From positions 129,084-193,083 of the forward strand of contig JBAZSE010000001.1 of assembly GCA_041662565.1 (NCBI GenBank): a stretch of 64,000 bases of DNA, written 5' to 3'. The DNA comes from Patescibacteria group bacterium (lineage in GTDB: Bacteria > Patescibacteriota > Patescibacteriia > UBA1558 > UBA10009). The notes below the pieces were generated by a model. It was not told where the DNA came from, did no database searches, and was given only the letters and a program-made list of their open reading frames with translations. The position numbers and the translations under genes were made by a program. Below, piece by piece: positions 1-33,324 of this stretch (the first letter of the stretch is position 1; each line of letters opens with the position of its first letter).

Positions 1-3000
1 TGCCGCCGAGTTAGCTAAAAGCGGGCCTGTTGCCGAAACCGTTAGTACCGGAGATATTGTAGCCGATTCTATTGGTATTTTTACCAATACCTTGGCTTCC
101 AAATTATTAAAACAATTATTTGATAAGGGCTTAACCAGCGGCAAACGTGCCCAAAGCACCCTAACCTTTAACTGGGTTAACACTCAAGTTGCCCGAACCC
201 AAGCCACTTCGGTTTTTGCCAATTTAGCCGAGGTTAGTTATTCTTCGGGCCAAGAACGGTTGTTGGAGCCGTTAAGCACTTGCCAAAATCCTTATAACCC
301 CGGCCCTACCGAGTGTGTTTTTAGCCCAAAGCTGGTTGGTGCTATTGAACAGGGTTTAACGGTTAAGGAGGCCTTAGCCAAGGGCCAACTTAGAGCAGCA
401 GGTTTGGTTGGCTACAAAAGCAACGGCAATTTAAGTTGGTTGGATGATTACCCCTACCGTTCGTTGTTAATTATGAGAATCCAGCGGATTTTGCCGGTTG
501 GCTGGGAGCAGGCCGCATTGTATAACCAAAAAGTTTTTAAAGAAGTAACGTTGGGTCAAATTGTAGATTGTTTTGAAGATCCTGCTGATCCGGAAAATCC
601 TAAAAAACCAACCGGTTGTAGGCAGGATATAAATGGCGATAGCTTTATAAATGAAGAGGATTTTAATCCCTATTTTCATTTAATTGATCCTAATTGGGTT
701 TTAAAGGCGCCGGAAAGTTATTGCGTTAAAAAGAGTTTTGGGCCAAACATTGTTAGCAGTGCCAGTGAATGTTTGGAAGATAACGTGGCTGAAACCAGAG
801 ATCCTAATAACAATAATGAGCTTGTTGAAGGACCGGCTTGCGAAACAACTTTGAGCAACCCCGATAAGCCGGTGCAAACCGTAGTCAGGGGTGATGAATA
901 CTGTGCTGACCGTAAAACTTGTTTGGAAGATGATGCTTCCGGCAACTGTACTTCCGGCGAATACGGCTACTGTGTTAAAGAAAAAGAGGTATGGCGTTTC
1001 CCCGGCGGAGAAAGTTGTCAGCCCTACTATAATACCTGCGAAACCTTAAGCAGAAATGCGGACAGTAAAAGTTTTTCTTACTTAAGAAATACGCTTAAAG
1101 AATGTTCTGCTGGCGCTGCCGGCTGTTTATGGTATTCCACTAATCAAACCAAGGCCTCGGGCTCTTGGCAATGGCAAGATGAGGCCAGGGTTTATTTAAA
1201 TGAAAAGGCCTTAAATTGCGGAGCCAATGAAGTTGGCTGTACCCAATTAACCGTTCTTAAGCCCGGCGTTAATACTATATTTAACGGCGATTTTGGTTCT
1301 AGCGAAAATAATTTAACCCCCGATGGCTGGCAAGGAACTAATGGTTGCGCTATTGTTTTGGATTCCGAAGGGAAAAATAATAATGGCTTAAAAATTACGG
1401 CTGCTGGCAATTCTTGTTCGGCTTCAACCATCGGTTTTATCCCGCTTAATTCCAGATTTGGTTATACTTTTGTAGTTTCTTTTAAATCCCCTGATCAAGC
1501 AACAGCGGGGGCCAGTTTGAATTTTTATGAACGCGCCGCAGACAATTCTTTAATCAATAACGCCACTCAAGCCATGAATTTGCCGGACGTAACCGGCCAA
1601 TGGCAAACATACAGTGGAGTTGTTAGTAATATTCCCAGCAACGCCAATTTTGTTAAAGTTAATTTAACAGCCACTGGCAATGGCGATTTGTTTTATGATG
1701 AGGCGCAATTGATCATTAGCCAATCGCCGATTGTTAAGGATCAAGAAATTAATTTTAGCGTTGACCCATCAAGATACCAAATTGATTACAGCCATGATGA
1801 TTCGTATGCCAGAACATTTTTAAAAACCCCGCCCGATTATTTGGCCTGCGAGGGCTATAACCAAGTAGAAAGGCGTTTTGCCACTCAAGAGGCCTGTGAA
1901 ACAAATAGAAAAGTTTGGCGCCAAGATATTAAATTATGCGTTAGCAGCGGCAGCACAAACTGTAATAATTACGCGGCAGTTTGCCAAGCTCAAGAAATCG
2001 GCTGCCAAGGTTATAAGCCCTTAAGTGGCGATCCGGAGGTTTCGGCCGTAGCCGGTGAGGGCGATGTTTGCCCGGCGGTCTGTGTTGGTTTTGAAAGTTT
2101 TTTGCAACAACCCAACTATTTTGATGTGGCCGAAAATGCCAATGTTCAAGCCAGCTACCAAAACTTTATTCCCAATACGGCTGCTGTTTGTTCGGCTAAC
2201 AATAACGGCTGTGAACAGTTTACCAATTTGGACGAAGTAGCCAAAGGCGGCGAGGGCATTGAATACTTTAAGCAGTTTAGACAATGTGTTTCTCCTAATA
2301 ACGCTAACATTAAAACCTATTATACTTGGGAGGGTTCCGATACCACGGGTTATCAGTTAAAGAAATGGGAATTTTTAGGTAGCAGTGTTGATGAGGGCCC
2401 TTGTACCAATATTGGCATGAACAGCGAAGAATGTACGGATACGCAGGATAATATGTTTAGATGCACCCAGGCCGATATTGATAATGGTATTTCGGATTGC
2501 CGGCATTTCTTTAATAAAGATAATGAACCATTCTTTGTTTTGGAAAGCAAGGCCATTACCGCTTCGGTTTCGTGCAGGCCATACCGCCGAACCTCAACCG
2601 GCCAGGTTTATAATGCCGATCCTCGGCCGGGTGATACTTGCCCCGCGGCCGCTAACAACTGCCGTGAGTACAGCGGTAATAGAGGCAACAATGTTAAAAC
2701 CATTTTAACCGATACTTTTGAAAAGAAAACTTTGGGCGATTGGGAAAATATTGTTGGTTCTACTTATGGTTTAATTCCTTCCAACGAAGCGATTTATCAA
2801 GGCGGACATTCTATGCTGGTGGCCACGCCAAACGCCGCTGTTTACTATCCATTAAATAATAAATTGGTTTCTGGACATGAATATTTATTAAGCTTTTGGG
2901 CTAAAAAAGCCAATGGTTCCAAGGTATCGCCAAAAAATAATAATCCGCAGGGCCAAACTGTTGATCTTTTAAATTTCTCTTTAACTAATGATAATTTAAC

Positions 3001-6000
3001 CAATGATTGGACATTATATACTGTTGGCCCGATTTTGTTTACCTCAAATGGCGCCAATCTTGCCAAATTAAAATTCTCCATTGAAGGATTAGGTAATGAT
3101 GAAGTTTATTATTTGGATAATGTTGTCTTAAAAGAATTTACCAACAGCTTTTACGTTATTAAGGATTCTTGGGAAACCGAGCAGGTTTGTAATGATCCAT
3201 ACCCGGGCGCTTACCTTGGGTGCCAGGCCTACACCGATAGGCAAGGCCAGAGCAATAACTACTTTAAGGGCTTTGCCAACTTATGTTCTCCGGCCGCCAT
3301 TGGCTGTGAGGCCTTTATAGATACTCAAAACAATAGCAATTACCAAGCCAGCCATTTATACAGAGTAAACGACCAAGATATTGTTACAGTGGCTAACGAT
3401 CGATTGGTTTACTTGGTTAATGATGTTACCAAGCAATGCAGCGCCGAAAAACAGGGCTGTTCGCTATTAGGTAAACCAACGTTGGATAGGCAAGAAAGTG
3501 AAGCAGGAACAGTTGTTGGTTATAATGATATTTACAAAATTAATAATCCCGATTCATATAGTGCGCATCTTTGCAGTGAGAGCGGATTATTCTGTACAAC
3601 CTTTAAAGGTGAAACCGGCGCTAGCAACCGGTACTATTATGATCCCGAGGCCTTAAGTGGCAATGGCGCCAATATGGTGCAAAGTTGTTACTACGCCAAT
3701 GGCCATTGGTATAAGAGCGGCAGTACCGGAGGCAATGCCGAGCCCTGCCCTGGTTCTTATAACTTCCATATGCTGGCTTCAAACCAAGAGGGCTATAGCA
3801 ACTGGGTCGGGGTTTGCCCGGCCAATCAATCAACTTGTACCGAATTTAGGGATCCCAGCGCATCAATCAACGAAGAAGTTAAACAGTGTGACGCGCAAAT
3901 TTCACCTACCATGTTGGGCACTTGTGTTGTTGGCCAAAATGGAGCGGAAGAACAAAACAATGATGACTATTGCAGTTTGAGCATTAATGGAGTGCGCCAT
4001 AAAGTTTGTAAATTAAATGGTGCTGATCGATGCGCCTACACGGCCAGCGATTGGACGTGTTTGAGCGAGCCAGCCCAGTATAATGATCAGGGTCAGCTTG
4101 AAGCTGGTACTGGCAATTGCCAGGTTAACAACCAAAAAGTTTGTTTTATTCCTTCGGGCAATACCACATCCTGTACCTATTCATTATTATGCAGTTCGGA
4201 TTCTTATTATTATCTGCATAATTCTTTGGATACCACGGCCACCTGCAATACAGTGGATAGGGAAGCGGGTTGTTTACTATTTAACGATACCTTAAACGGC
4301 AATTTAAGTTATAGCAATAAGGGCTCTAATGATGGCGCCGAAGCGAGCGGTTGCGATGCTTGGGAAAATTTTGGTTCAAACAGATATTGCGATGCCAATA
4401 AAATTATTAAAGTTAAAAAAGATAGGCAGTGCGGCGAGTGGCTGGAATGCAAAACCGGTTTTGAACAGCCCAAAGTGGGCAAGAGCGGAGAAAAAGAATT
4501 TGTTTGTTTGGATTTATACCGCTGTTCGCAAAAAGGAACCGGTGATAGGGATTGCGTTAAAATTATTTCCCAAGCAGGCGCTGATACATCTATATATACC
4601 TTACCGGCCGATATTGATAAAATCCGCAACTTATCCGGCTATAGCCATCCGGGCTTAAAATGGAACGATAACATTCAAACAGTTGGCTATGCTTCACCCG
4701 AGGCCATGACCCAAAAAGGCCAGCCCTTGGAAGTGGTTAATGGCGGTTTTGAAACCTACCTTGGCGGTGATCTTTCTAAGCCGGAAGGTTGGAAAACATC
4801 TCATAGGAATGAGGATGAAATTAATTCCAGCTATATTAGTAATGCCTGTTCGGCAAGTTTGGATCAAGATTCTGGCAATGTCCATTCGGGACGATATAGT
4901 TTGCGCTTAAGTTTAATCAGTTTACAGCATCCTGACGGCAATGACGGCAATGTTTATTGCGATTTTAGATCCGATGCCGGTGAAGATAAGTATTATCAGA
5001 TAATAGACAGTAGCAATTATAATTTGTCTTTTTGGGCAAAGAGTGAAAATAATGCCCAAGCAGCGGCTGTAACTTTGGCGTTTTACAATAATAGCAGGTA
5101 TCTTGGAGGTGATGATTTGCGTTTGGATATTATGCCTTCTACCAAATGGCAAAAGTATGTTATCAGTTACGGTAATCTTACTCGTCCGATTCCCAATAGC
5201 GCTAATCAGGCCAGGATCTTCTTTTACAATTATGCCGGCCCGAATTTTAGTGGTGTTTCTAACGGCTCAATTTGGTTTGATGATTTTGCCATAGAACCGG
5301 TGTTGGTTTTGGATGAACGCAATAACATTTCCGTTGCCAAAGATTGCCGCTTGTATCCAACCGAAGAAGCCCCCGCTTGTTCGTATCAAGGTTTATCCAG
5401 CAAATACGAGGGCTGGCAAGGTTATTGCTTAGAGCCGGATCCGGCCAATGCCGAACAATGTTTGCAATGGTATCCTGTTGATTCTTTAATGGGTGATCGC
5501 TTAAGCGTTTTTAGCACCCAAAGCACCATTAGTTACACCGATAGGTCGCCTTTATATTATTGCGCCCAAACAGCGGGGATGTATAATTTTGCTCCTGATT
5601 TACAGGGGAATTATTTAGGTACCGTGGGTTATAAATATCAGCCAATAGTAAATATACAACAAGGCGGTCCTCATGACCAATGTAATGATAATCATGCACT
5701 AGATGGCGGTATGGGGAGTAATTTGAGAATTTGTGTAGATAATGATGCTGATCCAGCTAATAGTAATTTTCCTGTATGGTCGAATTCATGTGGTAGTAAA
5801 GATTCCTCTTTTTGTAACGTAAATCAGCAAGTTTGTGAAGATCAAAATCATATTAATTATTGTAAAGTGAAGGAATCGCAAGGTTGTAAAGATGTTTGTC
5901 CCACGTTAACTCAGGAGGCATGTAGTGCGCATAGGGGATGTGTTTGGAATTATAGTTGTATACGAGTGGAAGACGCAAATCATCATGCATGTATTAATGC

Positions 6001-7657
6001 GCAAAATCAAAACACCTGCGATTATAATTGGCAATACGATGGTTGTGGTTGGGATCAGCCATGTGAATCAAAAACAACAAACGCGATTTGTAGTTCTTTG
6101 AGTCCTAGTCAATGTTTGGCTCCTTGTGTATTTACTAAAACTATAGATAATGGCAACAGCTCTTATTTGTATACTATTCATGATTGGTTAACTTTGGACG
6201 AAATAGGTGCCATTAAATTAGAAATAACTGGAAATTCGGGTAGTGATTTTGGCACAGGCGTTTATTTTAGCGATGTTACGGATCAATTAGATTCAGTGAC
6301 CGCATGGGGCGGTTTTAAGCCGGAAGACCTAAGTAAATATAAAAAAGTTTTTAATGCTTATGATAATTCAACGGGTCAAGGTGGCTATTCAATATTTTTC
6401 TCTTTTGATGAGGACCCTGGAACAAATAATTTGCGTTTACAAAGAGTAGATGTTACGGCGGGTGATTCAGACCAATTCGGAGGTTTTAGTGGCAAATTAT
6501 ATTTTTATTTAAAAGAACAATGCTCCTTAATCGCCCAAGTAGTTAAAACTGAAGGCAATGTGGTAAAAGAAAAAACCTGGCTCGGGCGTTTTAGCGCTTG
6601 GACGGATATGGCCAGCAACGTTTTGGGCTTAAATAAAAAAATCGATCAATCTCCTTACGGCAGTTTTTACGCGCCCAAAAACACCACGCCCGATTATTGG
6701 AGCGAGTTAGGGGCAAATGGTCGTAAAGATGCTCCGGTGTATATTTATAATGGTGGAAGCTTTGATTTTGGCCCTGGCACCCCGCTGGCTTGGTCGGTGC
6801 CCGAAAGATCGGCTTTTATAGCCGGAACGCCTGGTAGAATCTGTGCCTCTTCGGAAAATAAAAGCTTAATTGGCAAAGAATGTAGAACCTCCAGTGATTG
6901 CGGAACCAATGGCGTTTGTAGCGGTATTGGCAAGTATTGCTATAGTGCTCAAGGTATTACCAATGGCAAGGCCTGTAATGGTGATAATGATTGTTCCGTA
7001 ACACAAGGATTTAGATGTGAGAATCCGGAAAATTTGGTCGCTGCGCCGACGCAGAATATGAGCTCGGAAGCTGTAGCTATAAGCCGACTGCAACAATTAT
7101 TTGCCAAGGTTTATGGCGTGTGGCAATGGGATCAAAATGAAGGAATCTATAAAACGTTGGAGATGGATAATTTGGATATTAGCCCCAATAAGCCTGGCGG
7201 CTGGGCTGGTTCTGATTGGCCAAAAGTTGATTCAGCTATTATTACCGATAATATTCTTAATGCCCCGGGCGGCAAAGTAGAACTTAATTTTACCGCCAAT
7301 GGCAGTGTTGATCAGTTGCCTATTGATGGCATTTGGATAAACTGGAATGATGGCAATGTAGATTACTTTAAAGGGCCTTTGGGATATAAGCCCAGCGTTA
7401 GTTCGCCTTATAAGGCCTACCATGTTTATACTTGCCAAACCAATGATCGGGGCGATAGGTGTGTTGCTTGTCTTGGTGCAGGTACTTTAGATGACGGTAG
7501 TTGTTCTTACCCGGCACCAGTGATAACTTTCAAAGATCATTGGGGTTGGTGTTCTTATAATAGTTTTCGAGGCCAGGCCTATGTTGATCAAGGGGTCTGT
7601 AATTCGTTGTTCGGCAAGCAAGCGGATAAAAGCGTTACTATTCAACGTATTCAATAA
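1..7657 (+). CDS. Giant cysteine-rich secreted/surface protein, 5'-partial (more than 2521 aa). Carries several CBM4/9-like (galactose-binding-like) modules and recurring Cys-rich 'hydrophobic-G-C' repeats
   Basis: The frame is open from nt 2 with no stop, so the gene starts upstream of the window (first Met at 92). 'NGDFE/NGGFE ... GW' motifs recur around nt ~1270-1560, ~2700-3130 and ~4740-5300, which is typical of CBM_4_9. Cys content is very high and there is no long hydrophobic core. Confidence 0.7.
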   Translation, partial: AAELAKSGPVAETVSTGDIVADSIGIFTNTLASKLLKQLFDKGLTSGKRAQSTLTFNWVNTQVARTQATSVFANLAEVSYSSGQERLLEPLSTCQNPYNPGPTECVFSPKLVGAIEQGLTVKEALAKGQLRAAGLVGYKSNGNLSWLDDYPYRSLLIMRIQRILPVGWEQAALYNQKVFKEVTLGQIVDCFEDPADPENPKKPTGCRQDINGDSFINEEDFNPYFHLIDPNWVLKAPESYCVKKSFGPNIVSSASECLEDNVAETRDPNNNNELVEGPACETTLSNPDKPVQTVVRGDEYCADRKTCLEDDASGNCTSGEYGYCVKEKEVWRFPGGESCQPYYNTCETLSRNADSKSFSYLRNTLKECSAGAAGCLWYSTNQTKASGSWQWQDEARVYLNEKALNCGANEVGCTQLTVLKPGVNTIFNGDFGSSENNLTPDGWQGTNGCAIVLDSEGKNNNGLKITAAGNSCSASTIGFIPLNSRFGYTFVVSFKSPDQATAGASLNFYERAADNSLINNATQAMNLPDVTGQWQTYSGVVSNIPSNANFVKVNLTATGNGDLFYDEAQLIISQSPIVKDQEINFSVDPSRYQIDYSHDDSYARTFLKTPPDYLACEGYNQVERRFATQEACETNRKVWRQDIKLCVSSGSTNCNNYAAVCQAQEIGCQGYKPLSGDPEVSAVAGEGDVCPAVCVGFESFLQQPNYFDVAENANVQASYQNFIPNTAAVCSANNNGCEQFTNLDEVAKGGEGIEYFKQFRQCVSPNNANIKTYYTWEGSDTTGYQLKKWEFLGSSVDEGPCTNIGMNSEECTDTQDNMFRCTQADIDNGISDCRHFFNKDNEPFFVLESKAITASVSCRPYRRTSTGQVYNADPRPGDTCPAAANNCREYSGNRGNNVKTILTDTFEKKTLGDWENIVGSTYGLIPSNEAIYQGGHSMLVATPNAAVYYPLNNKLVSGHEYLLSFWAKKANGSKVSPKNNNPQGQTVDLLNFSLTNDNLTNDWTLYTVGPILFTSNGANLAKLKFSIEGLGNDEVYYLDNVVLKEFTNSFYVIKDSWETEQVCNDPYPGAYLGCQAYTDRQGQSNNYFKGFANLCSPAAIGCEAFIDTQNNSNYQASHLYRVNDQDIVTVANDRLVYLVNDVTKQCSAEKQGCSLLGKPTLDRQESEAGTVVGYNDIYKINNPDSYSAHLCSESGLFCTTFKGETGASNRYYYDPEALSGNGANMVQSCYYANGHWYKSGSTGGNAEPCPGSYNFHMLASNQEGYSNWVGVCPANQSTCTEFRDPSASINEEVKQCDAQISPTMLGTCVVGQNGAEEQNNDDYCSLSINGVRHKVCKLNGADRCAYTASDWTCLSEPAQYNDQGQLEAGTGNCQVNNQKVCFIPSGNTTSCTYSLLCSSDSYYYLHNSLDTTATCNTVDREAGCLLFNDTLNGNLSYSNKGSNDGAEASGCDAWENFGSNRYCDANKIIKVKKDRQCGEWLECKTGFEQPKVGKSGEKEFVCLDLYRCSQKGTGDRDCVKIISQAGADTSIYTLPADIDKIRNLSGYSHPGLKWNDNIQTVGYASPEAMTQKGQPLEVVNGGFETYLGGDLSKPEGWKTSHRNEDEINSSYISNACSASLDQDSGNVHSGRYSLRLSLISLQHPDGNDGNVYCDFRSDAGEDKYYQIIDSSNYNLSFWAKSENNAQAAAVTLAFYNNSRYLGGDDLRLDIMPSTKWQKYVISYGNLTRPIPNSANQARIFFYNYAGPNFSGVSNGSIWFDDFAIEPVLVLDERNNISVAKDCRLYPTEEAPACSYQGLSSKYEGWQGYCLEPDPANAEQCLQWYPVDSLMGDRLSVFSTQSTISYTDRSPLYYCAQTAGMYNFAPDLQGNYLGTVGYKYQPIVNIQQGGPHDQCNDNHALDGGMGSNLRICVDNDADPANSNFPVWSNSCGSKDSSFCNVNQQVCEDQNHINYCKVKESQGCKDVCPTLTQEACSAHRGCVWNYSCIRVEDANHHACINAQNQNTCDYNWQYDGCGWDQPCESKTTNAICSSLSPSQCLAPCVFTKTIDNGNSSYLYTIHDWLTLDEIGAIKLEITGNSGSDFGTGVYFSDVTDQLDSVTAWGGFKPEDLSKYKKVFNAYDNSTGQGGYSIFFSFDEDPGTNNLRLQRVDVTAGDSDQFGGFSGKLYFYLKEQCSLIAQVVKTEGNVVKEKTWLGRFSAWTDMASNVLGLNKKIDQSPYGSFYAPKNTTPDYWSELGANGRKDAPVYIYNGGSFDFGPGTPLAWSVPERSAFIAGTPGRICASSENKSLIGKECRTSSDCGTNGVCSGIGKYCYSAQGITNGKACNGDNDCSVTQGFRCENPENLVAAPTQNMSSEAVAISRLQQLFAKVYGVWQWDQNEGIYKTLEMDNLDISPNKPGGWAGSDWPKVDSAIITDNILNAPGGKVELNFTANGSVDQLPIDGIWINWNDGNVDYFKGPLGYKPSVSSPYKAYHVYTCQTNDRGDRCVACLGAGTLDDGSCSYPAPVITFKDHWGWCSYNSFRGQAYVDQGVCNSLFGKQADKSVTIQRIQ

Positions 7658-7659
7658 AA

Positions 7660-10600
7660 ATGCCTAATCGTTTTTACAACTTAATTAAAAAAAGTAAAAA
7701 ATGGCCATATATTACGGGCGTGGCGCTATTTTTGCTGATCATTTTGTTATTACCCAATTCAGCAGGCGCGGAAAGTAATGTTATCATGGGTACCTTAATT
7801 TCGTGGGTTGGTTCGGCCATGCTGTTGTTGATTAATTTTTTGGGCACTTGGTTATTGTTGCCATTAATCAATTTGGTTATTTGGATATTCAGTTATAACA
7901 GCTTTTTAACTTCCAATGCCGTGGTGGTTGGCTGGCCCTTGGTTAGGGATTTATCCAATATGTTTTTTGTGGTGATTTTACTATTTATCGCATTTGCCAC
8001 CATTTTAAACATTTCCAATTACAGCTACAAAAATACTTTTTTTAAACTGATCTTAATGGCCATTTTGGTTAATTTTTCCAAAACCATCATGGGCTTTTTT
8101 ATCGATTTTTCGCAAGTGATAATGCTCACATTTGTGAGTGCTTTTAGGGATGCGGCTGCTGTTAATTTGATCCACGCTTTTGGCATTAGGGATATTTTAA
8201 AACTAAACGTTAATGGCGGGGATTTTAGCAATACTCACGCTATTGGCGTGGTAATTTTGGCGGTTATTTTACTAGTGGTAGCCATTGGCTTAATGTTGGC
8301 TTTTGCCGTTATCCTGTTGTGGCGCATTTTAACTTTATGGGTTTTAATTATTTTATCGCCCTTGGCCTTTTTACTTTCTTCCATTCCGGCTGGGCAAAAA
8401 TACGCTTCCGAAATCTGGAGCAAGTTTACCGAACAGCTCGTAACTGGTATTGCTTTGGCATTTTTTACCTGGCTGTTTTTTACCGTTTTAGCCGCCGGAT
8501 ACAGCACGGATCAGCAAAAAATTGATAATAACAGCGTTTTAACCGGCAGTAATCCGGGTGCTGGCCTTACTTCTGACAAAACAGCTTCAATTGCCGGTAC
8601 TGCTCCGATTTCCAATGATGTTGATTGGGAACGCCTGTATACTTTTATCGTAGCTATTGCGTTGTTGTTTTTGGCTTTAGAATACGCCCAAAAAGCCGGT
8701 GGGCATGCGGGCAGTATGGCGGGGAAGATTTCTGGGCACATGTCAAAGATTGGAGCAAAGACGGCTGGCGGTTTTGGTTTGGTTGGGTTAGGAGCGAGAT
8801 CTTTGCCGAAAAAATTTGATCAAGGATTAGTAAGATTTCAAAAAAGCGGAGTTTTGAAAAGATTTGGAATGAAAGGGTTGGGCACCAAGCTTCAAGAAAG
8901 ACCTATTTCTTTAAGACCAACTGTTATTAAAGAAGCGATTGCTAGATATACCAAAGAAAGGGAAAGCCAATATTACACAGGTGTTGCCGAAGGCATGACC
9001 GATAATTTGCTCAAACAATTTGCCGGCAGAAAATCTGATTACGCCGGCATAGCTTATGATTCCAGAGTTAAAGAAAAGGCCCATGAAATAGGTTTGGGAG
9101 GTGAAACTCAGGAGCAGATGAGGGCTTATTTAAAAGAAGATCATTTAGAAAAATATGAAGGAACAGATCAGGACGGCAATAGGGTAACAAAGTATAAGGT
9201 TAAACAAGGTCATGAGGTTGAGGCAGAAGCCATCTTAGAAATTATGACCAAAAATCATGATCTTAATGAAATTTTTAAGGATCAAGATATAGGAGCTGCT
9301 TACAACAATGAATATTCAGCCATTAATGTTAGAGATTTGATTATGGATTTATTTCATGATCAAGGGCATGAGTTTGCCGGCAGGGTAGCAAAAGATGTTG
9401 GTATAGTTGGTTTTGAAAATAAAGATGCTCATTTGTATGGCATGGGTTCAAAAAATGTTAAAACTGGAGAATTTGAAGTTTTTCAGGAAACAACTAGAAA
9501 TGAAGAGGGTGATGAGAGTATTGTAAAAAAAGTTTTTGGCATTAATAAAAAAGAGAATCCGGAGGAATTTAGGAAGAAAATGGATTATGTAAAAGATTTG
9601 CGGCAGCGAGGTGCTCAAGGTGATAAATCGGCTGAAAAGGAATACAGAGGTTTGGTTAGGGATGAATGGAGTGTTTCTCAGGGTGCATTGGCTACCGCTT
9701 TTATGCTTAAAAAAGGTGGCCGCGCCGGATTGGGCAAAATTACTGCTCAGAATATCGTTGATGAAGGAGTTGTTCATGATGAACAGGGTAATGTTCAGGT
9801 TGGCGAAGACGGTGAAACCAGCCGTAGTTTCTTAACTTATAATTTGAATGAAACCGGCAGAGGAATAATTGAAAAAATGGCCGGTGTTATGACTAAAGAA
9901 TTTTCTCATATTATTGATGAAACCAAAATCTATGGTATAAACCCTGCTCTTGATACAATTTTAAAATTTGCCGAAGCCCAAACTTTAGCTTCTGAAAGAG
10001 CTAAGATTATGGATTTTGTGGCCAAAGTCGCTGGTATGGGAGAAAAGGTGCCTAGTGACATTAACGGTGTTAAAATTGATTCATCTCTAATTAAAAAACA
10101 AAGTAATGATTATCTTCAAGATGAGGGCTATAAAAAATTTAAGGAGCAGATTGTTAGGGTTTCCCAGGAATCAAGGTTAATTTCTCAGGGTGATGCGCGG
10201 CATGCAAGAATTGATGAACAAGACGGCAAATGGAAAAGAGATAGGTATTCAGTATTTGCAGAATATGAAAATGAAGATTTAACGCATAAGGCAAATGGTT
10301 CTAATCAGGAGCAATCGAGTTCCAATGCACCATCTACAAATCAGCCAACTATTCAGGCCGCCGTCTTTCAGCCACAATTAGCGAGATTAGATCAGATTAA
10401 TCAAAGATTAGCCACAATAGCTGATAAAATCGGTCAGCCGCCAATTGACGCAGAACGAGCAATTTTGCTTAATGAAAAGAACGGTTTAGAAAAACAAACT
10501 TCTATTTCCGTAACTTCAAATTTGATTAATAATATTATCAGCGGTAATCCTTCCACTTACGGGCCCAATTGGATGAAAGATCGGGCGACCAGGGATTTAT

Positions 10601-10782
10601 TTATCAGGACTTTAGACGAACATTTGCAGCCGATTAAAGATGAGGATGTAAGATTGCATGAAATTACCATGCGCCATCTCCAGGAGAGTTTTAGCACGCT
10701 TGATGACAGGTTTAAGAATTTGATTAATAATGAGGATGCTATGGTTAAATTTATCACTGAGCATAAAAGTGAAAAAAAATAA
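7660..10782 (+). CDS. VirB6/TrbL-like polytopic membrane protein. Signal peptide plus at least 6 TM helices, then a ~700-aa highly charged hydrophilic tail
   Basis: N-terminal signal 'LLLPNSAGA|E' followed by many hydrophobic helices over aa 40-350. The ATG is 2 nt after the upstream stop. It sits in a T4SS context. The VirB6 assignment rests on topology and context, not on a recognised motif. Confidence 0.45.
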   Translation: MPNRFYNLIKKSKKWPYITGVALFLLIILLLPNSAGAESNVIMGTLISWVGSAMLLLINFLGTWLLLPLINLVIWIFSYNSFLTSNAVVVGWPLVRDLSNMFFVVILLFIAFATILNISNYSYKNTFFKLILMAILVNFSKTIMGFFIDFSQVIMLTFVSAFRDAAAVNLIHAFGIRDILKLNVNGGDFSNTHAIGVVILAVILLVVAIGLMLAFAVILLWRILTLWVLIILSPLAFLLSSIPAGQKYASEIWSKFTEQLVTGIALAFFTWLFFTVLAAGYSTDQQKIDNNSVLTGSNPGAGLTSDKTASIAGTAPISNDVDWERLYTFIVAIALLFLALEYAQKAGGHAGSMAGKISGHMSKIGAKTAGGFGLVGLGARSLPKKFDQGLVRFQKSGVLKRFGMKGLGTKLQERPISLRPTVIKEAIARYTKERESQYYTGVAEGMTDNLLKQFAGRKSDYAGIAYDSRVKEKAHEIGLGGETQEQMRAYLKEDHLEKYEGTDQDGNRVTKYKVKQGHEVEAEAILEIMTKNHDLNEIFKDQDIGAAYNNEYSAINVRDLIMDLFHDQGHEFAGRVAKDVGIVGFENKDAHLYGMGSKNVKTGEFEVFQETTRNEEGDESIVKKVFGINKKENPEEFRKKMDYVKDLRQRGAQGDKSAEKEYRGLVRDEWSVSQGALATAFMLKKGGRAGLGKITAQNIVDEGVVHDEQGNVQVGEDGETSRSFLTYNLNETGRGIIEKMAGVMTKEFSHIIDETKIYGINPALDTILKFAEAQTLASERAKIMDFVAKVAGMGEKVPSDINGVKIDSSLIKKQSNDYLQDEGYKKFKEQIVRVSQESRLISQGDARHARIDEQDGKWKRDRYSVFAEYENEDLTHKANGSNQEQSSSNAPSTNQPTIQAAVFQPQLARLDQINQRLATIADKIGQPPIDAERAILLNEKNGLEKQTSISVTSNLINNIISGNPSTYGPNWMKDRATRDLFIRTLDEHLQPIKDEDVRLHEITMRHLQESFSTLDDRFKNLINNEDAMVKFITEHKSEKK

Positions 10783-10785
10783 ATT

Positions 10786-12015
10786 ATGGATTTTCAGGAA
10801 TTCAATAAAGCATACGAAAAGATACTATTAACCGCTGATTCGCAGAAGGCCATGCAGTTATTAACTTTGCTTAATAAAGGCGGATTTAATGTTTCGGCGG
10901 ATAAAGTAGTTATTTTAAAATGGATTGCTTTAGACCGTTTATCTGATCGGGAAATTTTAGAATTATTCCAAAATTATTTTAAAGAAGGTTTAGAGTTGGA
11001 ATTTTATGATTTAAAAGATCAGGTTAGAAATAAATTTCTTACTAGCGTGCCTGAATCCAAGCGTGATGATTATAAAAAAGAAATACTAAAAGCCATTAGC
11101 AATAATCAGCAAAAAATCAGCAGCCAAAATTATTTAACTGGCAATAATCAGTCTGTTGCAAATTCCATTGGCGTTTGGCTTAAAGATTATCTTGTTTTTG
11201 GTGGAGCGGAACCGTTGACCAATATTAAGGAATTAGAGTTTTATAAGTCAAACAAAAATTGGGGCTTATTAAATAATCAACAAAGGGAACAGTTGCGTTT
11301 GATGTTTAACTTAGTTGAATGGCTTAAGCATTCCAATTTTTCTTTACGAGGCGATTCTGAACCGGCATTTTTAAATTATGACGGAGAATATTACGGCATT
11401 ATTGACGGCAGGGTTTATAAGGCAAAAGATTTAATTGATGATTTGTCTTTAAGTTATTTTGCTCAAATTTCTGGAAACCAAAGTAATGCTTTACCAAAAA
11501 CATCGTTTTCCATAAATCCTCAAATTTTACGTTCTCGTTACCAAGAAATTTTAAAGCAATTATTGCCTGCTAACGGCGTTGCAAAAAAACCTGCCAGCCA
11601 TGAACCGGAGGTTTTATTAAACCAGCTTAATAATGATTTGGCCTTACGCGATGCCGGTGCTGTGGTTGCTGATCTGGAAAATTTAATCCAGTTAAAAGGT
11701 TTGTTAAAATTGTTAAAGAGCAAAAACTTTTCCAGTGATTTTATAATTTATTTAGAAGCCCATTTGGGCATGGGGCTTGAAGATCAAGCTACCCGCTTAT
11801 CTCCAGAATCTTTATCTTTATTTTTGCAGTTTTTACTGATTAATAAACTTCAACTTAGTTTGGAGCAGTCGGCAGTTATCGGATTATATTTGGCTAATGT
11901 TTTAGCCAAGCAAAATCAGCGGGAGTTTTTACCCATTGCCTACTGTGATTTATCTTCAAACACCTTTAAATGGCGGGAAGTGATAGGGGAGAATGGGAAG
12001 TTGAAGTTTAAGTAG
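10786..12015 (+). CDS. Hypothetical soluble protein (409 aa), translationally coupled to the VirB6-like gene
   Basis: Long ORF starting 4 nt after the upstream stop. No TM segment and no recognisable motif. Confidence 0.5.
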   Translation: MDFQEFNKAYEKILLTADSQKAMQLLTLLNKGGFNVSADKVVILKWIALDRLSDREILELFQNYFKEGLELEFYDLKDQVRNKFLTSVPESKRDDYKKEILKAISNNQQKISSQNYLTGNNQSVANSIGVWLKDYLVFGGAEPLTNIKELEFYKSNKNWGLLNNQQREQLRLMFNLVEWLKHSNFSLRGDSEPAFLNYDGEYYGIIDGRVYKAKDLIDDLSLSYFAQISGNQSNALPKTSFSINPQILRSRYQEILKQLLPANGVAKKPASHEPEVLLNQLNNDLALRDAGAVVADLENLIQLKGLLKLLKSKNFSSDFIIYLEAHLGMGLEDQATRLSPESLSLFLQFLLINKLQLSLEQSAVIGLYLANVLAKQNQREFLPIAYCDLSSNTFKWREVIGENGKLKFK

Positions 12016-12033
12016 TTTGGTTTAATAGATTTT

Positions 12034-12077
12034 AAAAAACGGATTGCACTGATATTTATCAAGGCAATCCGTTTTTA
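12034..12077. terminator. Bidirectional intrinsic terminator between the convergent hypothetical gene and efp
   Basis: Stem ACGGATTGC / GCAATCCGT around a 16-nt loop. It is flanked by an A-tract on the 5' side and TTTTT on the 3' side. Confidence 0.7.
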
Positions 12078-12094
12078 ATATAAATTGATTTAAT

Positions 12095-12652
12095 TTAAAC
12101 CCTTTCTACGTATTCTTCCGTTTCGGTATTAACTCTGATCATTGTGCCTTGGTTTACAAACAAGGGCACTCGAATTTCCTTACCGGTTTCCAAAACAGCG
12201 GTTTTCATGGCTGCTCCGGCCGTATCGCCCTTAATACCGGGAGGAGCATCAACTACCATTAATTCAACTTTAACCGGCAGTTTAACGCTAACCGGGCGGC
12301 CTTCAAAAATCAGCACATCCACGGTTAAGCCGTCTTTTAAAAACTCCGCGGGAGCGCCGATAACTTCCTTATCCAGTTCAAACTGCTCAAAGGATTCGTT
12401 ATCCATAAAAAAGCACTTATCGCCTTCTTTGTACAAAAAGTTGGCTTTGGCTCTTTCTAAATCAGCTTCTTCGGCTTTATCGCCACCGGCGTAGGTGATT
12501 TCCAAATTTTGCCCGGTAATTAAGTTACGCAGTTTGGTTTTTAAGGTTGCTCCGCCCCTTCCTTGCTTGGCATGCAAAGCCGAAATAACCACATACGGCT
12601 GTCCGTTGTGATTAATAGCGGTTCCCAGTTTAATGTCACTGATACTTAACAT
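12095..12652 (-). CDS. efp: Elongation factor P
   Basis: 185 aa. 'GGATLKTKLRNLITGQ' and the overall EF-P KOW / OB architecture are recognisable. Confidence 0.93.
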   Translation of the reverse strand: MLSISDIKLGTAINHNGQPYVVISALHAKQGRGGATLKTKLRNLITGQNLEITYAGGDKAEEADLERAKANFLYKEGDKCFFMDNESFEQFELDKEVIGAPAEFLKDGLTVDVLIFEGRPVSVKLPVKVELMVVDAPPGIKGDTAGAAMKTAVLETGKEIRVPLFVNQGTMIRVNTETEEYVERV

Positions 12653-12653
12653 A

Positions 12654-12893: not shown

Positions 12894-12917
12894 AGAGTAT
12901 TAATTTATAATTTAAGT

Positions 12918-13016: not shown

Positions 13017-13028
13017 GAACATTTGAAT

Positions 13029-24555: not shown

Positions 24556-25524
24556 ATGAACACCTTTGTTTTACCCTTTTCCAAAATAAATAAAAAAAGC
24601 GTGGCAATAGCCGGAGGCAAAGGCGCTTCGCTCGGAGAAATGACAACCGCAAAACTGCCTGTTCCGCCAGGATTTGTGGTTTTAGCCAGCACTTTTGATC
24701 AGTTTTTAAATAATACCCCTCCGCCAGTTGGGTGTGGGCAGGATTTAAACGTTTATATCGAAGCGGAGTTAAAAAAAGTTAATCATCAGGATGTTAGTTC
24801 GGTTGATAAGGCATCGCATGTTATTCAGGATATGATTCATAAGGCAACGATGCCTGTTTCAATGGCAGAGGCCATTGTTAAAGAGTATAAAAAATTAAAA
24901 ACCAAGTGGGTGGCAGTCCGTTCATCGGCTACTGCGGAGGATTCTTCAATTGCCTCCTGGGCAGGCGAGTTGGACACTTTTTTGTTCATTGACGATAAAC
25001 ATTTGGTAGAAGCGGTAAAAAAATGCTGGGCCAGTTTATTTACTCCACGCGCCATTTTTTACAGGTTTGAAAAAAAATTGCATAAAACAGCGGTGAGTGT
25101 GGCTGTAGTGGTTCAACAAATGGTTGATTCTCAAATTTCCGGCGTGGCTTTTTCGGTCCACCCGGTTACTAAAGACAAAAATCAGCTGATTATTGAAGCC
25201 GGCTACGGTTTGGGTGAAGCTATAGTTTCGGGCACCATTACGCCCGATAGCTATGTAGTCCATAAAAAAGAAGGTACAATTTTGGATATTAATATTTCCA
25301 AGCAGGAAAAACAGATTATTTTAAAAGCAGGGGGGGGTTCGGTTTTAAAACCTGTAGCCAAGTCAATTCAGGAAAAACAAAAATTAACTGGCAAACAAAT
25401 TATTGAATTGGCCGAAATTGTTAAAAAGATAGAAAAACATTACGGCAAACCCCAGGATATAGAATGGGCCTTATTTAAAAATAAATTTTATATATTGCAG
25501 TCCAGACCAATTACTACTCTATGA
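24556..25524 (+). CDS. Stand-alone PEP synthase / PPDK N-terminal ATP-binding (ATP-grasp, PPDK_N) domain protein
   Basis: 'AIAGGKGASLGEM', 'LPVPPGFVV', 'AVRSSATAEDS', 'GVAFSV', 'EAGYGLGEAIVSG' and 'IEKHYGKPQDIEWA' are collinear with the PpsA N-domain. No His or TIM-barrel domain follows. Confidence 0.85.
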   Translation: MNTFVLPFSKINKKSVAIAGGKGASLGEMTTAKLPVPPGFVVLASTFDQFLNNTPPPVGCGQDLNVYIEAELKKVNHQDVSSVDKASHVIQDMIHKATMPVSMAEAIVKEYKKLKTKWVAVRSSATAEDSSIASWAGELDTFLFIDDKHLVEAVKKCWASLFTPRAIFYRFEKKLHKTAVSVAVVVQQMVDSQISGVAFSVHPVTKDKNQLIIEAGYGLGEAIVSGTITPDSYVVHKKEGTILDINISKQEKQIILKAGGGSVLKPVAKSIQEKQKLTGKQIIELAEIVKKIEKHYGKPQDIEWALFKNKFYILQSRPITTL

Positions 25525-26783
25525 CAGCAAATAGTTTACAATCTACTAATGATGAAATCCTGGTTATGGATGAAACCGGCCAGTTTCAGGTTTTATCTAA
25601 TGGCGAGCTAAAACCTTTTAATGGCGCTTCTTATCAAACAATTGGTAATGAAGTTGAGGCGACCGAAGAGAAATTACAGCCGATTTTGCCAATGGATACA
25701 GGTTATGAAGAAAAAATGATCCAGCCCCCGCCTCCTGCTTTATATAAACAAACTTCCAGTTTTTATTTTCATCCCGAAGATGAAGAAGAAGCTGCCAAAC
25801 ATAAAGCCAATATACCGGCATCTGGTCCGCAAAAAAAATATTCTTTGGATAAAATCGTTGCCAAAATAGTTGAAAATTATAAATTAACCTTAACGCCCGA
25901 ATTAAACAACAGATTAAGGTCATTGGTTTACAGTTTTTTGCGCGATCGTCGGAGCGAAGCCGATGCCAAGGGTTTGCTGGAGCGGCCGGTTACCGAAGCC
26001 GGTTTGGATTTTGAAAACGGCTTGGCGGAAAATTTATTGGAATTTTTAAAGGAAATTAAAGGTAAGATTTTAACAGCCGGCGGAATAGTGGTTGACGAAA
26101 ACCAGGAGGCGCCTCAAGTTGCTGTTGGTAATATTTCTTCGGTTTCATTGCCCGAAGTTAAAAAGGCCATGCCTGTTGAACTGCCTAAAGATAAGCCGGT
26201 GGCACCAATCCAGCCGGAAGTAAAAATTGAACTGCCAACAAGCCGGCCAACTCCGATTATTAAAACCGTTTCGGATGCTGTTTCTTTAAATCAAGTTGAA
26301 AGTCGTGTGCCCTATGTAACAGAGCCCTTGGTACAGCGCCAGCCCTTGCCTGATTTGCCAGTTGGGGCTTTTAAGCCGTCTATGCCCATTTACACCAAAA
26401 TGGCTCGGCCCGAAAAGCAAGGCGCCAGCCGGATTAACGATATTAAAAAGGATTATAAGCTGGTTGGGCCGGTAGAAGAGTTATCCATATTAACCTTGGA
26501 AACTTTTAGAAGATTGGGCGCTACTACCCAGGAAAGAGTTCAAAAAATCATGAGCAAAATAGATTTGCTAAGCAAAGATTCTTTGGCTAAAAAATCTTTA
26601 GGAATTTCGGCTTGGCGCACCAGTTCGTTATACAAAATGTATGTTTCTTTGGGGCATGCTAGCATGGAGCATAATTTGGATTTAGCAGGCGTAATTAAAG
26701 AATATTCCGCCCAAGGCCAAGAAATTTTAACCATGGAAGAGTTTAATGCCATTACCGATTTAAATAAGCAATTAAGATTCTAA
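25521..26783 (+). CDS. Hypothetical protein (420 aa) with a Pro-rich central region. It forms ATGA and TAATG overlaps with its neighbours
   Basis: ORF with operon-style overlaps on both sides. No recognisable motif. Confidence 0.5.
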   Translation: MTANSLQSTNDEILVMDETGQFQVLSNGELKPFNGASYQTIGNEVEATEEKLQPILPMDTGYEEKMIQPPPPALYKQTSSFYFHPEDEEEAAKHKANIPASGPQKKYSLDKIVAKIVENYKLTLTPELNNRLRSLVYSFLRDRRSEADAKGLLERPVTEAGLDFENGLAENLLEFLKEIKGKILTAGGIVVDENQEAPQVAVGNISSVSLPEVKKAMPVELPKDKPVAPIQPEVKIELPTSRPTPIIKTVSDAVSLNQVESRVPYVTEPLVQRQPLPDLPVGAFKPSMPIYTKMARPEKQGASRINDIKKDYKLVGPVEELSILTLETFRRLGATTQERVQKIMSKIDLLSKDSLAKKSLGISAWRTSSLYKMYVSLGHASMEHNLDLAGVIKEYSAQGQEILTMEEFNAITDLNKQLRF

Positions 26784-27241
26784 TGCGCCAATTTACCGTT
26801 CCTCAATTTATTGATGTGGAAGATAAAATCATCGGCCCGATTACCGTTAGGCAGTTTGTGATTTTAATTGTCGGCGGGTTGTTTATATTTTTGGAATACA
26901 AGCTTTCCGATATCACCTTTTTTTTATTCATCGGCATCCCAACAGCTTTGCTGTTTGTGATTTTTGCTTTTGTTAAAATTAACGGAGTGCCTTTTCATTA
27001 TTTTTTATTAAATGTCGGCCAAACCTTTAAAAAACCGGCTTTGCGGGTTTGGCAAAGAACCAGTGCTTCATTTCACCGCCAAGAAAAAGCTGATACAAGT
27101 GTTCAAGCGGCCATAGCACCTTATGTTGCCCGCTCTATGGATAAATCCCATCTTTCCGAACTGGCTTTATTAATTGATACCGGTGGTGTTTATCAGGGCG
27201 AAGGCAGGGGCCAGGATGCTAATTTTAAATTGGAAATTTAA
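26783..27241 (+). CDS. PrgI-family (VirB3-like) small membrane protein of a type IV secretion system
   Basis: 'FTVPQFIDVEDKIIGPITVRQF' followed by two TM helices is typical of the PrgI family. It lies immediately upstream of the VirB4 genes. Confidence 0.7.
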   Translation: MRQFTVPQFIDVEDKIIGPITVRQFVILIVGGLFIFLEYKLSDITFFLFIGIPTALLFVIFAFVKINGVPFHYFLLNVGQTFKKPALRVWQRTSASFHRQEKADTSVQAAIAPYVARSMDKSHLSELALLIDTGGVYQGEGRGQDANFKLEI

Positions 27242-27251
27242 ACAAATCGTT

Positions 27252-27935
27252 ATGTCAGAAAATAAAAATATCGGCAGTAAAATAAAAACCCCTACTCAAA
27301 AATATTTGGATATCGCCGAAATTAAAGACGATACGGTTATTTTGCGCGATGGCGGTTTGCGTTCGGTTTTATTGGTTTCTTCCATTAACTTTGCCTTAAA
27401 AGGTGAAGATGAGCAAAATGCCATTATTCAGGCCTATGTTGGCTTTTTAAATTCTTTATCATTTCCCTTGCAGATCGTGATTCAATCCAGGAATTTAAAT
27501 ATTGACGGTTATTTAACCAAACTGGAAACCTTGGAAAAAGAGCAAACCAATCAATTGTTGCGCATGCAAATTGCCGATTATCGGACATTTTTAAAAGAAC
27601 TTTTGGATCTGGGAGAAATTATGACTAAAAAGTTTTACGTGGTGGTGCCTTACAGCGGTTCCAGTAGGGAAAAAAAGAAATTTTGGGAAATGTTTTTGGA
27701 TTTATTCGCTCCGGCTAGAACCATCAGCTTAAGCCAAAAAAAATTCAACCGCTCTCGCGAGGAATTATTCAAGCGTTTGGATTTTGTTATTTCGGGGCTA
27801 TCCAGCATTGGTTTACACGCTGTACCTCTTGATACCCAAAGTTTGATTGAGCTTTTTTACAATACTTATAATCCCGAAGTAGCCGATGCTCAGAAAATGA
27901 CCAATATCAATAAATTAAGAGTAGAAGAGAATTAA
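27252..27935 (+). CDS. Orphan VirB4/PrgJ N-terminal-domain paralog (227 aa). It has no ATPase domain
   Basis: 'LDIAEIKDDTVILRDGGLRSVLLVSSINFALKGEDEQNAIIQAYVGFLNSLSFPLQIVIQ' matches the CagE/TrbE/VirB4 N-domain pattern. The start is taken at the first ATG after the PrgI stop, since the ORF-track start at 27174 overlaps prgI. Confidence 0.55.
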   Translation: MSENKNIGSKIKTPTQKYLDIAEIKDDTVILRDGGLRSVLLVSSINFALKGEDEQNAIIQAYVGFLNSLSFPLQIVIQSRNLNIDGYLTKLETLEKEQTNQLLRMQIADYRTFLKELLDLGEIMTKKFYVVVPYSGSSREKKKFWEMFLDLFAPARTISLSQKKFNRSREELFKRLDFVISGLSSIGLHAVPLDTQSLIELFYNTYNPEVADAQKMTNINKLRVEEN

Positions 27936-28049
27936 TGCAGTAATCCCTTGAATTATGATGTAGGCCTTGAGCGCAGTCGAAAGGCCGATGCTCAAAAGAT
28001 GGCTAATATTACCAAACTACGGGTAGAAGAAAATTAGAAATTAAAAATT

Positions 28050-32637: not shown

Positions 32638-33324
32638 TTGTTTATGTCCGATTTAAATCCAAAACAGCTTAATTTATTCATCAAACTGGCTTTGTTAGTT
32701 TTGGTAATTTTTACGATCCTTATTATTGTTCGTTCTTTTTACGGTTCCAAGGCCTTAAAAGATAGCGAAGAATATTTAGCTTCTTTAACTAATGTGGCTG
32801 TGCAAACAAGTGAACCATCCTTAACGGAGCCAATAACCCGGGCCACTGATCCAACTTTAGGCAATGCGGATGCTAAAAATAAAATAGTTGTTTACAGCGA
32901 TTTTCAGTGCCCTTATTGCGCTACCGCCATGCAAGTTTTAGCCCAGCTGTTAAAACAACATCCGATTGATTTATTGATTACTTGGAAGGATTTTCCCAAT
33001 CCCGATCATCCCCAAGCTCAAGGTGCAGCTGTAGTCGCCAGGTGCGCTGCTGCACAAAATAAGTTTTGGGATTTTCATGATTATCTTTATGCCAACCAGG
33101 ATCAACTCGGCCCTTCTTTGTATCCGCAAATCGTCGCTAGTTTAAAAATGGATCTTAATACCTTTAACCAATGCAATGACAATCAAATAGGCCTGCCTTT
33201 GGTTGAAGAAAACTTTACTGAAGCCATGGGCTTGCGTTTAGACGGCACGCCATATTTGTTTGTTAATAACCAAAAATATGTAGGAGCCATTAATGTGGCC
33301 GAATTGGAAAAAATGCTGAAGTGA
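32638..33324 (+). CDS. DsbA-like thiol:disulfide oxidoreductase (thioredoxin fold, CPYC active site) with an N-terminal TM anchor
   Basis: 'VYSDFQCPYCATA' and the downstream 'GTPYLFVNNQ' (cis-Pro region) follow an N-terminal TM helix. Confidence 0.75.
   Translation: MFMSDLNPKQLNLFIKLALLVLVIFTILIIVRSFYGSKALKDSEEYLASLTNVAVQTSEPSLTEPITRATDPTLGNADAKNKIVVYSDFQCPYCATAMQVLAQLLKQHPIDLLITWKDFPNPDHPQAQGAAVVARCAAAQNKFWDFHDYLYANQDQLGPSLYPQIVASLKMDLNTFNQCNDNQIGLPLVEENFTEAMGLRLDGTPYLFVNNQKYVGAINVAELEKMLK

Follow-up and report, generated by a model that had tools for sequence, protein, structure and literature searches.

Patescibacteria are believed to spend their lives fixed to host cells, and the locus described here raises the question of whether a giant protein encoded beside a VirB6-like gene takes part in that contact. 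The gene lies at the left end of a 64,000-nucleotide stretch from a Patescibacteria group bacterium (GCA_041662565.1, contig JBAZSE010000001.1, positions 129,084 to 193,083; hereafter the window), next to components of a type IV secretion system (T4SS)-like cluster. A previous interpretation of the letters alone (the sequence-only reading) had proposed a carbohydrate-binding host-attachment or fibre protein. The answer that we favor, with belief and doubt in equal measure, is that the giant is a Sec-exported, disulfide-stiffened, glycan-binding contact or adhesion arm of a patescibacterial T4SS-like apparatus. It draws on the export signal, the domain folds, the cysteine pattern, the operon structure and the conserved synteny, which we describe in turn.

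The giant carries a Sec signal peptide

The giant gene occupies positions 2..7657 of the window on the + strand. In frame 2, 2551 codons run without a stop from base 2 until a TAA at 7655-7657; the 2521-aa open reading frame originally listed corresponds to a start at the first TTG only, and the open frame is longer. A homology search recovered the full-length protein, P0001 (2844 aa, 'hypothetical protein WCV73_03905', from a Patescibacteria metagenome-assembled genome (MAG) with an 809-kb contig), which is encoded at locus L001. The window copy comprises residues 294-2844 of P0001 plus the TAA stop, so that window residue n is full residue n+293; full-length numbering is used below unless stated otherwise. 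As had been supposed, the protein exceeds 2521 aa and is cut at its 5' end by the window: 293 N-terminal codons lie outside, the Sec signal peptide among them. Over 17.6 kb, the window differs from the Logan contig L001 by a single base, at window position 4193, where Arg in P0001 becomes Ser in the window copy (R1691S), which indicates at the sequence level that the two are near-identical strains or assemblies.

The N-terminus of P0001 reads MINKKKISIFFLTAVFLFVLANFLFVFNQALAQA/ADPL and combines a basic n-region (KKK), a 21-residue hydrophobic core and an A-x-A site (AQA); by these features it is a Sec signal peptide. Extension upstream of the window therefore revealed an exported rather than a cytoplasmic N-terminus, and hydropathy analysis detected no further membrane segment in P0001. 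A pilin module had also been considered for the true N-terminus and was rejected, as Pfam matched no family to residues 1-420 even at E<=5, T4SS_pilin (PF18895) included. A hydrophobic N-terminal segment is present in 108 of 111 long family members and is followed by A-x-A in 74 of them, while an LPxTG motif, a C-terminal transmembrane segment or an internal transmembrane segment was found in 0/111. A signal peptidase gene (lepB) is present in the window at 49724.

Three modules of the CBM4/9 type are spaced along the protein

The family-defining N-terminal domain covers residues ~95-545. The part of it that falls within the window (residues 294-545; 2..757, + strand, as are all parts of the giant) was delimited by family alignments A1, A3 and A8 and contains an alpha-helical sub-domain at residues 380-530 (predicted local distance difference test (pLDDT) 70-88) with invariant R452, P458, W461 and E462. 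No PDB, Pfam or PHROGs match was found for this domain. It is followed by a Cys-rich linker 1 (residues 546-711; 758..1255), modeled at low confidence, with invariant cysteines and the C-x6-C hairpin motifs CQPYYNTC, CSAGAAGC and CGANEVGC. The first module of the carbohydrate-binding module (CBM) 4/9 type, a beta-jelly-roll that we call A, spans residues 712-872 (1256..1738; all-beta, pLDDT 77-90). Between 1739 and 2683 lie, according to the alignments, Cys-rich linker 2 and a beta-rich domain at residues 1000-1185 (pLDDT 77-91 over most of its length). This domain is the most conserved of the family, with the motif VGCE(E/Q)FTNLDEVA.GGEG.EY...YYTWEGSD..GYQLK and invariant residues that include C1023, C1030, E1044, C1055, W1069 and Q1078.

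Module B follows at residues 1188-1335 (2684..3127) and leads into Cys-rich region 3 (residues 1336-1865; 3128..4717), part conserved and part variable, which holds more C-x6-C motifs and a modeled beta domain at residues 1704-1814. Module C, which carries insertions, spans residues 1866-2062 (4718..5308; pLDDT 73-91). Positions 5309..6172 encode a conserved Cys motif block (residues 2063-2150), whose consensus reads CRLYP...GW.GYCLE.DP...CLQWYPVD, and then a hypervariable Cys-rich stretch (residues 2151-2350), where BLAST coverage drops from 93 to 2-3 of 119 homologues. The protein ends in conserved beta-rich domains (residues 2351-2844; 6173..7654; pLDDT 64-91) that include small Cys-knot-like repeats and a terminal domain with the motif W..WGDG...H.Y, with neither LPxTG nor a membrane anchor. 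Along the whole protein, BLAST coverage outlines a conserved core (residues 100-1550), conserved islands (1700-1850 and 2050-2150), a hypervariable segment (2150-2450) and a conserved C-terminus.

The sequence-only reading had recognized three CBM4/9-like modules, and profile and structure searches bear this out. The pattern NG(D/G)F(G/E)...GW...SF(W/K)(A/S)K occurs in three regions, at window residues 428/493, ~905/963 and 1580/1675. A hidden Markov model search with Pfam CBM_4_9 (PF02018), the sole Pfam family matching the giant, gave 38.4 bits for the whole protein (E 1.9e-9; curated cutoff 25.9) and 26.9 bits, again above the cutoff, for module B alone. A family profile of module B (alignment A7, nine sequences) matched the PDB structures of CBM22 4xup (E 3.9e-9) and CBM4 1gui (E 2.3e-4), and hhalign related module C to module B with 81% probability and E 1.2e-5. 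For modules A and C, we turned to two AlphaFold2 models of stretches of the giant, each built on a 27-row family alignment, of which one holds A and the other C. Overall confidence was modest, with pLDDT 61 and 63 and predicted TM-scores (pTM) of 0.30 and 0.57, but two all-beta stretches, 712-870 and 1864-2084, are modeled with confidence (pLDDT 73-91).

When these models were compared with the PDB by Foldseek, CBM16, CBM22 and CBM4 structures came out at the top for both: the one holding A matched them at E 4.5e-8 (target TM 0.74-0.77), and the one holding C matched CBM4-2 1k42 (E 5.5e-7) and CBM16 (target TM 0.68-0.72); target TM across both models was 0.63-0.77. The matches carry no query ranges, and their assignment to A and C rests on length and the all-beta prediction. 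Among viral models (BFVD), the best matches of the module C model were CenC-like CBM domains of phage minor tail proteins, and the Foldseek matches also included iota toxin Ib and Cry toxins, through their binding domains. Together, the profile scores, hhalign, the PDB profile matches and Foldseek place all three modules, by sequence and/or predicted fold, in the CBM4/9 jelly-roll superfamily, as candidate sugar-binding modules. When the whole protein and the profile of its N-terminal domain were searched by sequence (PDB, NCBIfam, Pfam, PHROGs), nothing beyond CBM_4_9 was returned, and no catalytic family, glycoside hydrolase or other, was found in the Pfam, NCBIfam, PHROGs and PDB profile searches.

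The cysteines recur in a C-x6-C pattern

The window part of the giant contains 108 cysteines (4.2%) and the full protein 110, compared to 0.95% cysteine in the 29 other window genes pooled. The protein had been described as carrying hundreds of cysteines in a recurring 'GC' repeat; the enrichment is real and a recurrence exists, but the count was overstated and the repeat is of another kind. The GC dipeptide, observed 14 times against 9.2 expected, is not enriched and was rejected as the repeat unit. What recurs is the motif C-x6-C, present in 13 copies versus 4.3 +/- 2.0 in shuffled sequences, with 6 copies of the form C-x5-G-C.

In the family alignments, many cysteines of the giant are invariant across 27-53 homologues, down to ~30% identity. 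An even number of cysteines was counted in 94 of 111 family members, suggesting that nearly all of them are paired; disulfides are predicted for the giant. A DsbA-like thioredoxin encoded among T4SS-like genes (32638..33324, + strand; Pfam Thioredoxin_4 E 1.2e-23, DSBA E 4e-14) is a candidate oxidase for the disulfides of exported Cys-rich proteins. The other Cys-rich products of the window are pilin-domain proteins (5.1% and 2.8%), and Cys-richness marks the exported T4SS-linked proteins of the source genome.

The giant is encoded in a conserved block with a VirB6-like gene

At L001, the gene order is sua5, ksgA, a 278-aa protein, the giant, a 1040-aa protein and a 409-aa protein, followed by convergent efp-rpsR-ssb-rpsF. 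The gaps within the four-gene block are 17, 2 and 3 nt, and no excess of promoter- or terminator-like sites was found across window positions 7400-12300. The block opens with a gene that lies just outside the window on its upstream side (L001 2606-3442); its product is a bitopic membrane protein of 278 aa with one transmembrane segment and bacterial TSP3 calcium-binding repeats; its C-terminal repeat of ~35 aa is present in two copies, LTPDQIRSILLSAGVAEADLKNVDDTALQQMYQEVL and ITPDQLRALLIDQGASAEDVKDLSDTDLQALWNQVL, and the protein could be an anchor for the giant.

The VirB6/TrbL-like partner gene (1040 aa; 7660..10782, + strand) begins two bases after the stop of the giant, exactly as the sequence-only reading had it. 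Hydropathy predicts ~8-9 hydrophobic segments within the first 345 aa and then a hydrophilic tail of ~700 aa. TrbL (PF04610) is the only Pfam family matched by orthologues of this protein (2/5 and 6/47 in two sets, best E 4.6e-6), which lends indirect support to the VirB6-like label; a profile of the VirB6-like family found no match among solved structures in the PDB. The fourth gene (10786..12015, + strand) encodes a 409-aa protein with no transmembrane segment and no Pfam match, homologous to a 448-aa gene product encoded after the VirB6-like gene in locus L003.

Four more loci, with giants of 28-40% identity, carry the four-gene block as well, so that all 5 of the first loci share it. In a larger set of 80 genome loci, with flanks that reach ~3 kb past the giant, a VirB6-like gene lay downstream on the same strand within 2.5 kb in 37 of the 41 species-level loci with enough sequence. 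A stricter limit of 400 nt gave 23/55, because in many loci the interval between the two genes is taken up by a gene for a ~200-aa membrane protein or by small insertions of other genes. Neither VirB4 nor PrgI turned up within the 80 loci, whose flanks are too short for this to be telling. Upstream of the giant, a gene for a small membrane protein homologous to the 278-aa protein was found in 65 of 71 loci.

The ~200-aa intervening protein is encoded in many loci (for example L014 16601-17206, L016 10778-11428, L017 11927-12511 and L047 17919-18554); it has hydrophobic segments and the motif LIYINMHVFLRWVFP..FCKLGEEW, and the window holds no such gene. Small inserted genes also occupy this interval in some loci (for example L011 18581-19231 and L030 18065-18493).

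The family is large and patescibacterial

A first search returned 285 homologues of 2300-3600 aa, and every one with an organism name was from Patescibacteria. According to precomputed Pfam annotations, many of them carry CBM_4_9 and some carry dockerin, laminin-G-type or PA14 domains; dockerin type I (PF00404) was absent from the giant itself in the Pfam search. Run against a library of 1.84 billion proteins, the profile of the N-terminal domain (residues 95-545, alignment A8) matched 2014 cluster representatives, of which 1119 reached E<=1e-30, giving a family of at least 1119 clusters at 50% identity. In the best 150 of the 2014 matches, the start of the domain falls no further than ~250 residues into the protein, and lengths of 2300-3800 aa prevail.

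In a scan of one genome per species, relatives were found in 411 genomes, the informative names of which are Komeili-, Falkow-, Buchanan-, Kerfeld- and Kuenenbacteria, Parcubacteria and Paceibacter. Many family contigs (L007, L010, L012, L014 and others), which stem from third-party MAG assemblies, are titled 'uncultured Gammaproteobacteria bacterium', one is titled 'Alphaproteobacteria' and one, of 1650 bp, 'Zixiibacteriota'. Because every other informatively named family record is from a Patescibacteria lineage, these titles seem to be placeholders or the result of mis-binning, with no real occurrence outside the phylum behind them. No description of the family or of its VirB6 linkage was found in the literature library that we searched, which is incomplete.

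The T4SS-like cluster and the rest of the window

The remainder of the T4SS-like cluster is displaced in the window. It lies at 25521..29912 (+ strand) and, by Pfam, consists of a 420-aa gene, PrgI (VirB3-like), a 253-aa gene and a VirB4-like ATPase gene (TraG P-loop). In L003, the giant's block is followed without interruption by a 365-aa gene, then PrgI, a TraC-like gene and the gene of a VirB4-like ATPase. The window's 409-aa and 420-aa proteins are homologous to the products of two adjacent linking genes of L003 (19666-22504; E 4e-10 and 5e-49), the second of which stands between the block and PrgI there, which suggests that a once contiguous cluster has been split by ~13.5 kb (12016-25520) in the source genome, as judged from this one relative. 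The intervening segment holds efp, ssb, rpsF, a methyltransferase gene, six PEP-utilizers paralogues and a PPDK_N protein gene.

Three window proteins carry an N-terminal T4SS_pilin domain (PF18895), of 585 aa (5.1% Cys), 593 aa and 3032 aa; the pilin-domain proteins and the DsbA-like gene lie at 32638-35156 and 52650-63542. It had been suggested that the giant and the 3032-aa protein frame the T4SS region. This is true only loosely: the giant does adjoin the VirB6-like gene, but PrgI and the VirB4-like gene start only 19 kb downstream of the giant, past housekeeping genes, and between the pilin genes the rest of the window holds housekeeping genes (radA, recG, parAB, relA/spoT, dprA, der, lytR, lepB and hisS). 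The possibility that the two giants are paralogues was rejected (best BLASTP E 0.028).

The six tandem PEP-utilizers paralogues (15444-25524) measure 481-500 aa, and all have a PEP-utilizers swivel phosphohistidine domain at the C-terminal end (E 1e-24 to 1e-26), while their N-terminal ~400 aa have no significant Pfam match. The array is interrupted by a 192-aa open reading frame at 21319 and is followed by a His_Phos_1-like protein and a PPDK_N ATP-grasp protein that stands alone (E 1.7e-96). The arrangement resembles a PEP-synthase-like or phosphotransferase system in split form, in which many swivel-domain proteins share one ATP-grasp partner. In L002 and L004, too, PEP-utilizers genes come after the giant/VirB6 block. 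Further downstream, parA and parB lie at 38699-40670, ~10 kb from T4SS-like genes. Patescibacterial T4SS genes are often found near dnaA and the replication origin (PMC12102498); no origin is visible within the window, where the cumulative GC skew rises without reversal throughout.

Discussion

A 2025 survey of patescibacterial T4SS described VirB4, PrgI/VirB3, VirB6 and VirB2-like pilins, detected no adhesins such as PrgB and found the system to be mostly without relaxase or coupling protein (PMC12102498). The T4SS-like system is essential in the one genetically tractable Patescibacteria species, its function being still unknown (PMC11665869). In this species, Southlakia epibionticum, the T4SS cluster SEML1_0006-0019 was described as essential (PMC10633639), and SEML1_0013, a TrbL/VirB6-annotated gene of 3267 nt, was essential at 2/3 time points of transposon sequencing (PMC10633639 supplement). 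Giant surface proteins have been proposed for host attachment in other Candidate Phyla Radiation (CPR) bacteria, such as Vampirococcus lugosii (PMC8080830).

We propose that the giant is exported by Sec and that its signal peptide is cleaved after AQA33. Some 55 disulfides, in whose formation the DsbA-like oxidoreductase encoded nearby probably takes part, would turn it into a stiff, extended modular stalk, along which the three jelly-roll modules of the CBM4/9/16/22 type would be spaced, with the hypervariable stretch near the C-terminal domains. The giant, which has no covalent or membrane anchor of its own, would be held on the cell by its flanking membrane partners, the family-defining N-terminal domain docking on the VirB6-like and TSP3-repeat proteins. 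The CBM modules and the hypervariable stretch would bind glycans of the host cell envelope and so position the T4SS-like translocon, in whose secretory activity the giant might also have a part. The tightly packed four-gene block would supply the parts: the TSP3-repeat membrane protein, the giant, the VirB6-like protein and the soluble 409-aa protein. To call the giant a carbohydrate-binding host-attachment or fibre protein is still a reasonable proposal, in which sugar binding, host contact and a fibre (oligomeric) architecture are all putative.

A bolder form of this proposal, which we put forward only tentatively and think somewhat improbable, is that the family is the missing extracellular adhesin or contact arm of the T4SS-like machine in the sampled Komeili-, Falkow- and Paceibacter-type lineages. 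Each member would be a separately exported, disulfide-rich stalk of ~2800 aa whose orphan N-terminal domain docks on the VirB6-like channel and whose CBM modules and hypervariable region select the host envelope.

Several observations weigh against a glycan-binding arm of a T4SS-like apparatus. Taken alone, module A scores 24.4 bits with CBM_4_9 (E 4.2e-5), just under the cutoff of 25.9, and module C fails it at 10.9 bits; the N-terminal model, with pTM 0.30, has 38% of its residues at low confidence. Moreover, jelly rolls of the CBM type can have other roles, protein-binding or purely structural, as they do in toxins and phage tail proteins. The window's 1040-aa protein has no Pfam match itself, TrbL included, and the TrbL matches of its orthologues are weak and limited to 6 of 47. 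In the window, the block stands 13.5 kb away from PrgI and VirB4, with housekeeping genes and others in the gap. Finally, in S. epibionticum, the sole species with genetics, the gene table shows no giant beside the VirB6 gene (PMC10633639 supplement).

A first alternative is a general cell-envelope or S-layer-associated structural protein, whose CBM-type modules would bind the cell's own wall polymers and whose adjacency to the VirB6-like gene would reflect co-expression of envelope genes and not T4SS function. The housekeeping genes leuS, sua5 and ksgA lie upstream of the block in all loci examined, a conserved neighborhood that fits a core envelope gene equally; the family is large, with relatives in 411 species genomes and at least 1119 clusters at 50% identity, and its conservation appears to be vertical; and a giant without its own anchor must bind something on the producing cell. 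We nevertheless consider an envelope protein of this kind unlikely, since the downstream neighbor is specifically a VirB6-like gene in 37/41 loci and the L003 block continues into PrgI and VirB4, while the hypervariable region and the lineage-specific dockerin, laminin-G-type and PA14 domains of other members look more like partner recognition than like binding to the cell's own wall. A giant glycan- or wall-degrading enzyme is a still less likely account. In CAZy practice, CBMs are defined as modules appended to carbohydrate-active enzymes, and here they would target an orphan domain with unrecognized catalytic activity, either for a VirB1-like opening of the wall or for attack on the host wall. 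Invariant acidic residues in confidently modeled orphan domains (E462/D596 in the N-terminal region, E1044 in residues 1000-1185) and the dockerin modules of some family members would suit such an enzyme; the Pfam, NCBIfam, PHROGs and PDB profile searches that yielded no catalytic family speak against it, as do the top 50 Foldseek matches, which are all binding-type jelly rolls, although weaker domain matches could be hidden below them.

The least probable account that we considered is a released effector or toxin-like cargo that is exported by Sec and then handed to, or acts with, the T4SS-like system, binding host glycans as the binding components of AB toxins do. Bordetella pertussis toxin is a precedent for Sec-then-T4SS export, and the signal peptide, the lack of an anchor and the Foldseek matches to iota toxin Ib and Cry toxins in their binding domains are all compatible with this route. 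Against it, no toxic or enzymatic domain was detected in the giant, the tight 2-nt spacing with membrane components suggests coupled expression as for an assembled structure, and a gene of 8.5 kb is a large expense for a product that diffuses away, the largest contig of the genome being 0.8 Mb.

If the giant is indeed a contact arm of the T4SS-like apparatus, its architecture would be one that is not known to have been described for any T4SS; if the T4SS link is incidental, it falls among the ordinary giant surface proteins that have been recorded in CPR bacteria before. A family that adjoins a VirB6-like gene almost invariably offers a concrete, testable candidate for the means by which these cells select their hosts and keep hold of them, and its three defined binding modules could be expressed and screened on glycans, opening a route to host prediction for uncultivated lineages.

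Among characterized modules, CBM4, CBM9, CBM16 and CBM22 resemble those of the giant in profile, in the beta-jelly-roll predicted for the modeled modules and in the N-terminal (N)GxFE and central Y.LSFWAK strands. The giant's modules differ in that no recognizable glycoside hydrolase is attached, in that they are embedded in a disulfide-rich protein of 2844 aa and in the strong divergence of module C. The PrgB-type adhesins of Gram-positive MPF-FATA conjugative T4SS are likewise large secreted surface proteins encoded with a monoderm-type T4SS-like cluster and proposed to hold the partner cell. The giant, however, shares no sequence homology with them, lacks the LPxTG sortase anchor and has a different domain set; with CBM_4_9 as its sole Pfam match, it shows no PrgB or antigen I/II-type adhesin domain. 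Its place in the cluster is beside the VirB6-like gene, contiguous with PrgI and VirB4 in L003 and split from them by 13.5 kb in the window. The pilin-fused giant of 3032 aa (54444-63542) is also Cys-rich (2.8%), with a weak CBM_4_9 match, and is encoded on the same strand near T4SS-like genes, but it combines an N-terminal T4SS_pilin domain with TIG and Big_5 (Ig-like) domains, whereas P0001 has a plain signal peptide and the orphan N-terminal domain, and the two are not homologous.

The giant belongs with the already known giant modular surface proteins of CPR bacteria, and its conserved linkage to a VirB6-like gene is apparently undescribed. The giants of Vampirococcus lugosii (PMC8080830) are very large proteins with interaction domains for which host recognition or attachment has been proposed; they differ in having WD40, PKD, integrin or fibronectin domains and an inferred membrane localization, and no conserved VirB6 linkage is described in the passages of that report that we read. 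In the Rickettsiales, extended VirB6 paralogues such as Anaplasma VirB6-4 (4322 aa; PMC7648143) also tie a giant polypeptide functionally to VirB6. There, the extension is fused to VirB6 itself, whereas the patescibacterial giant is exported by Sec as a protein in its own right, and its gene precedes the VirB6-like one.

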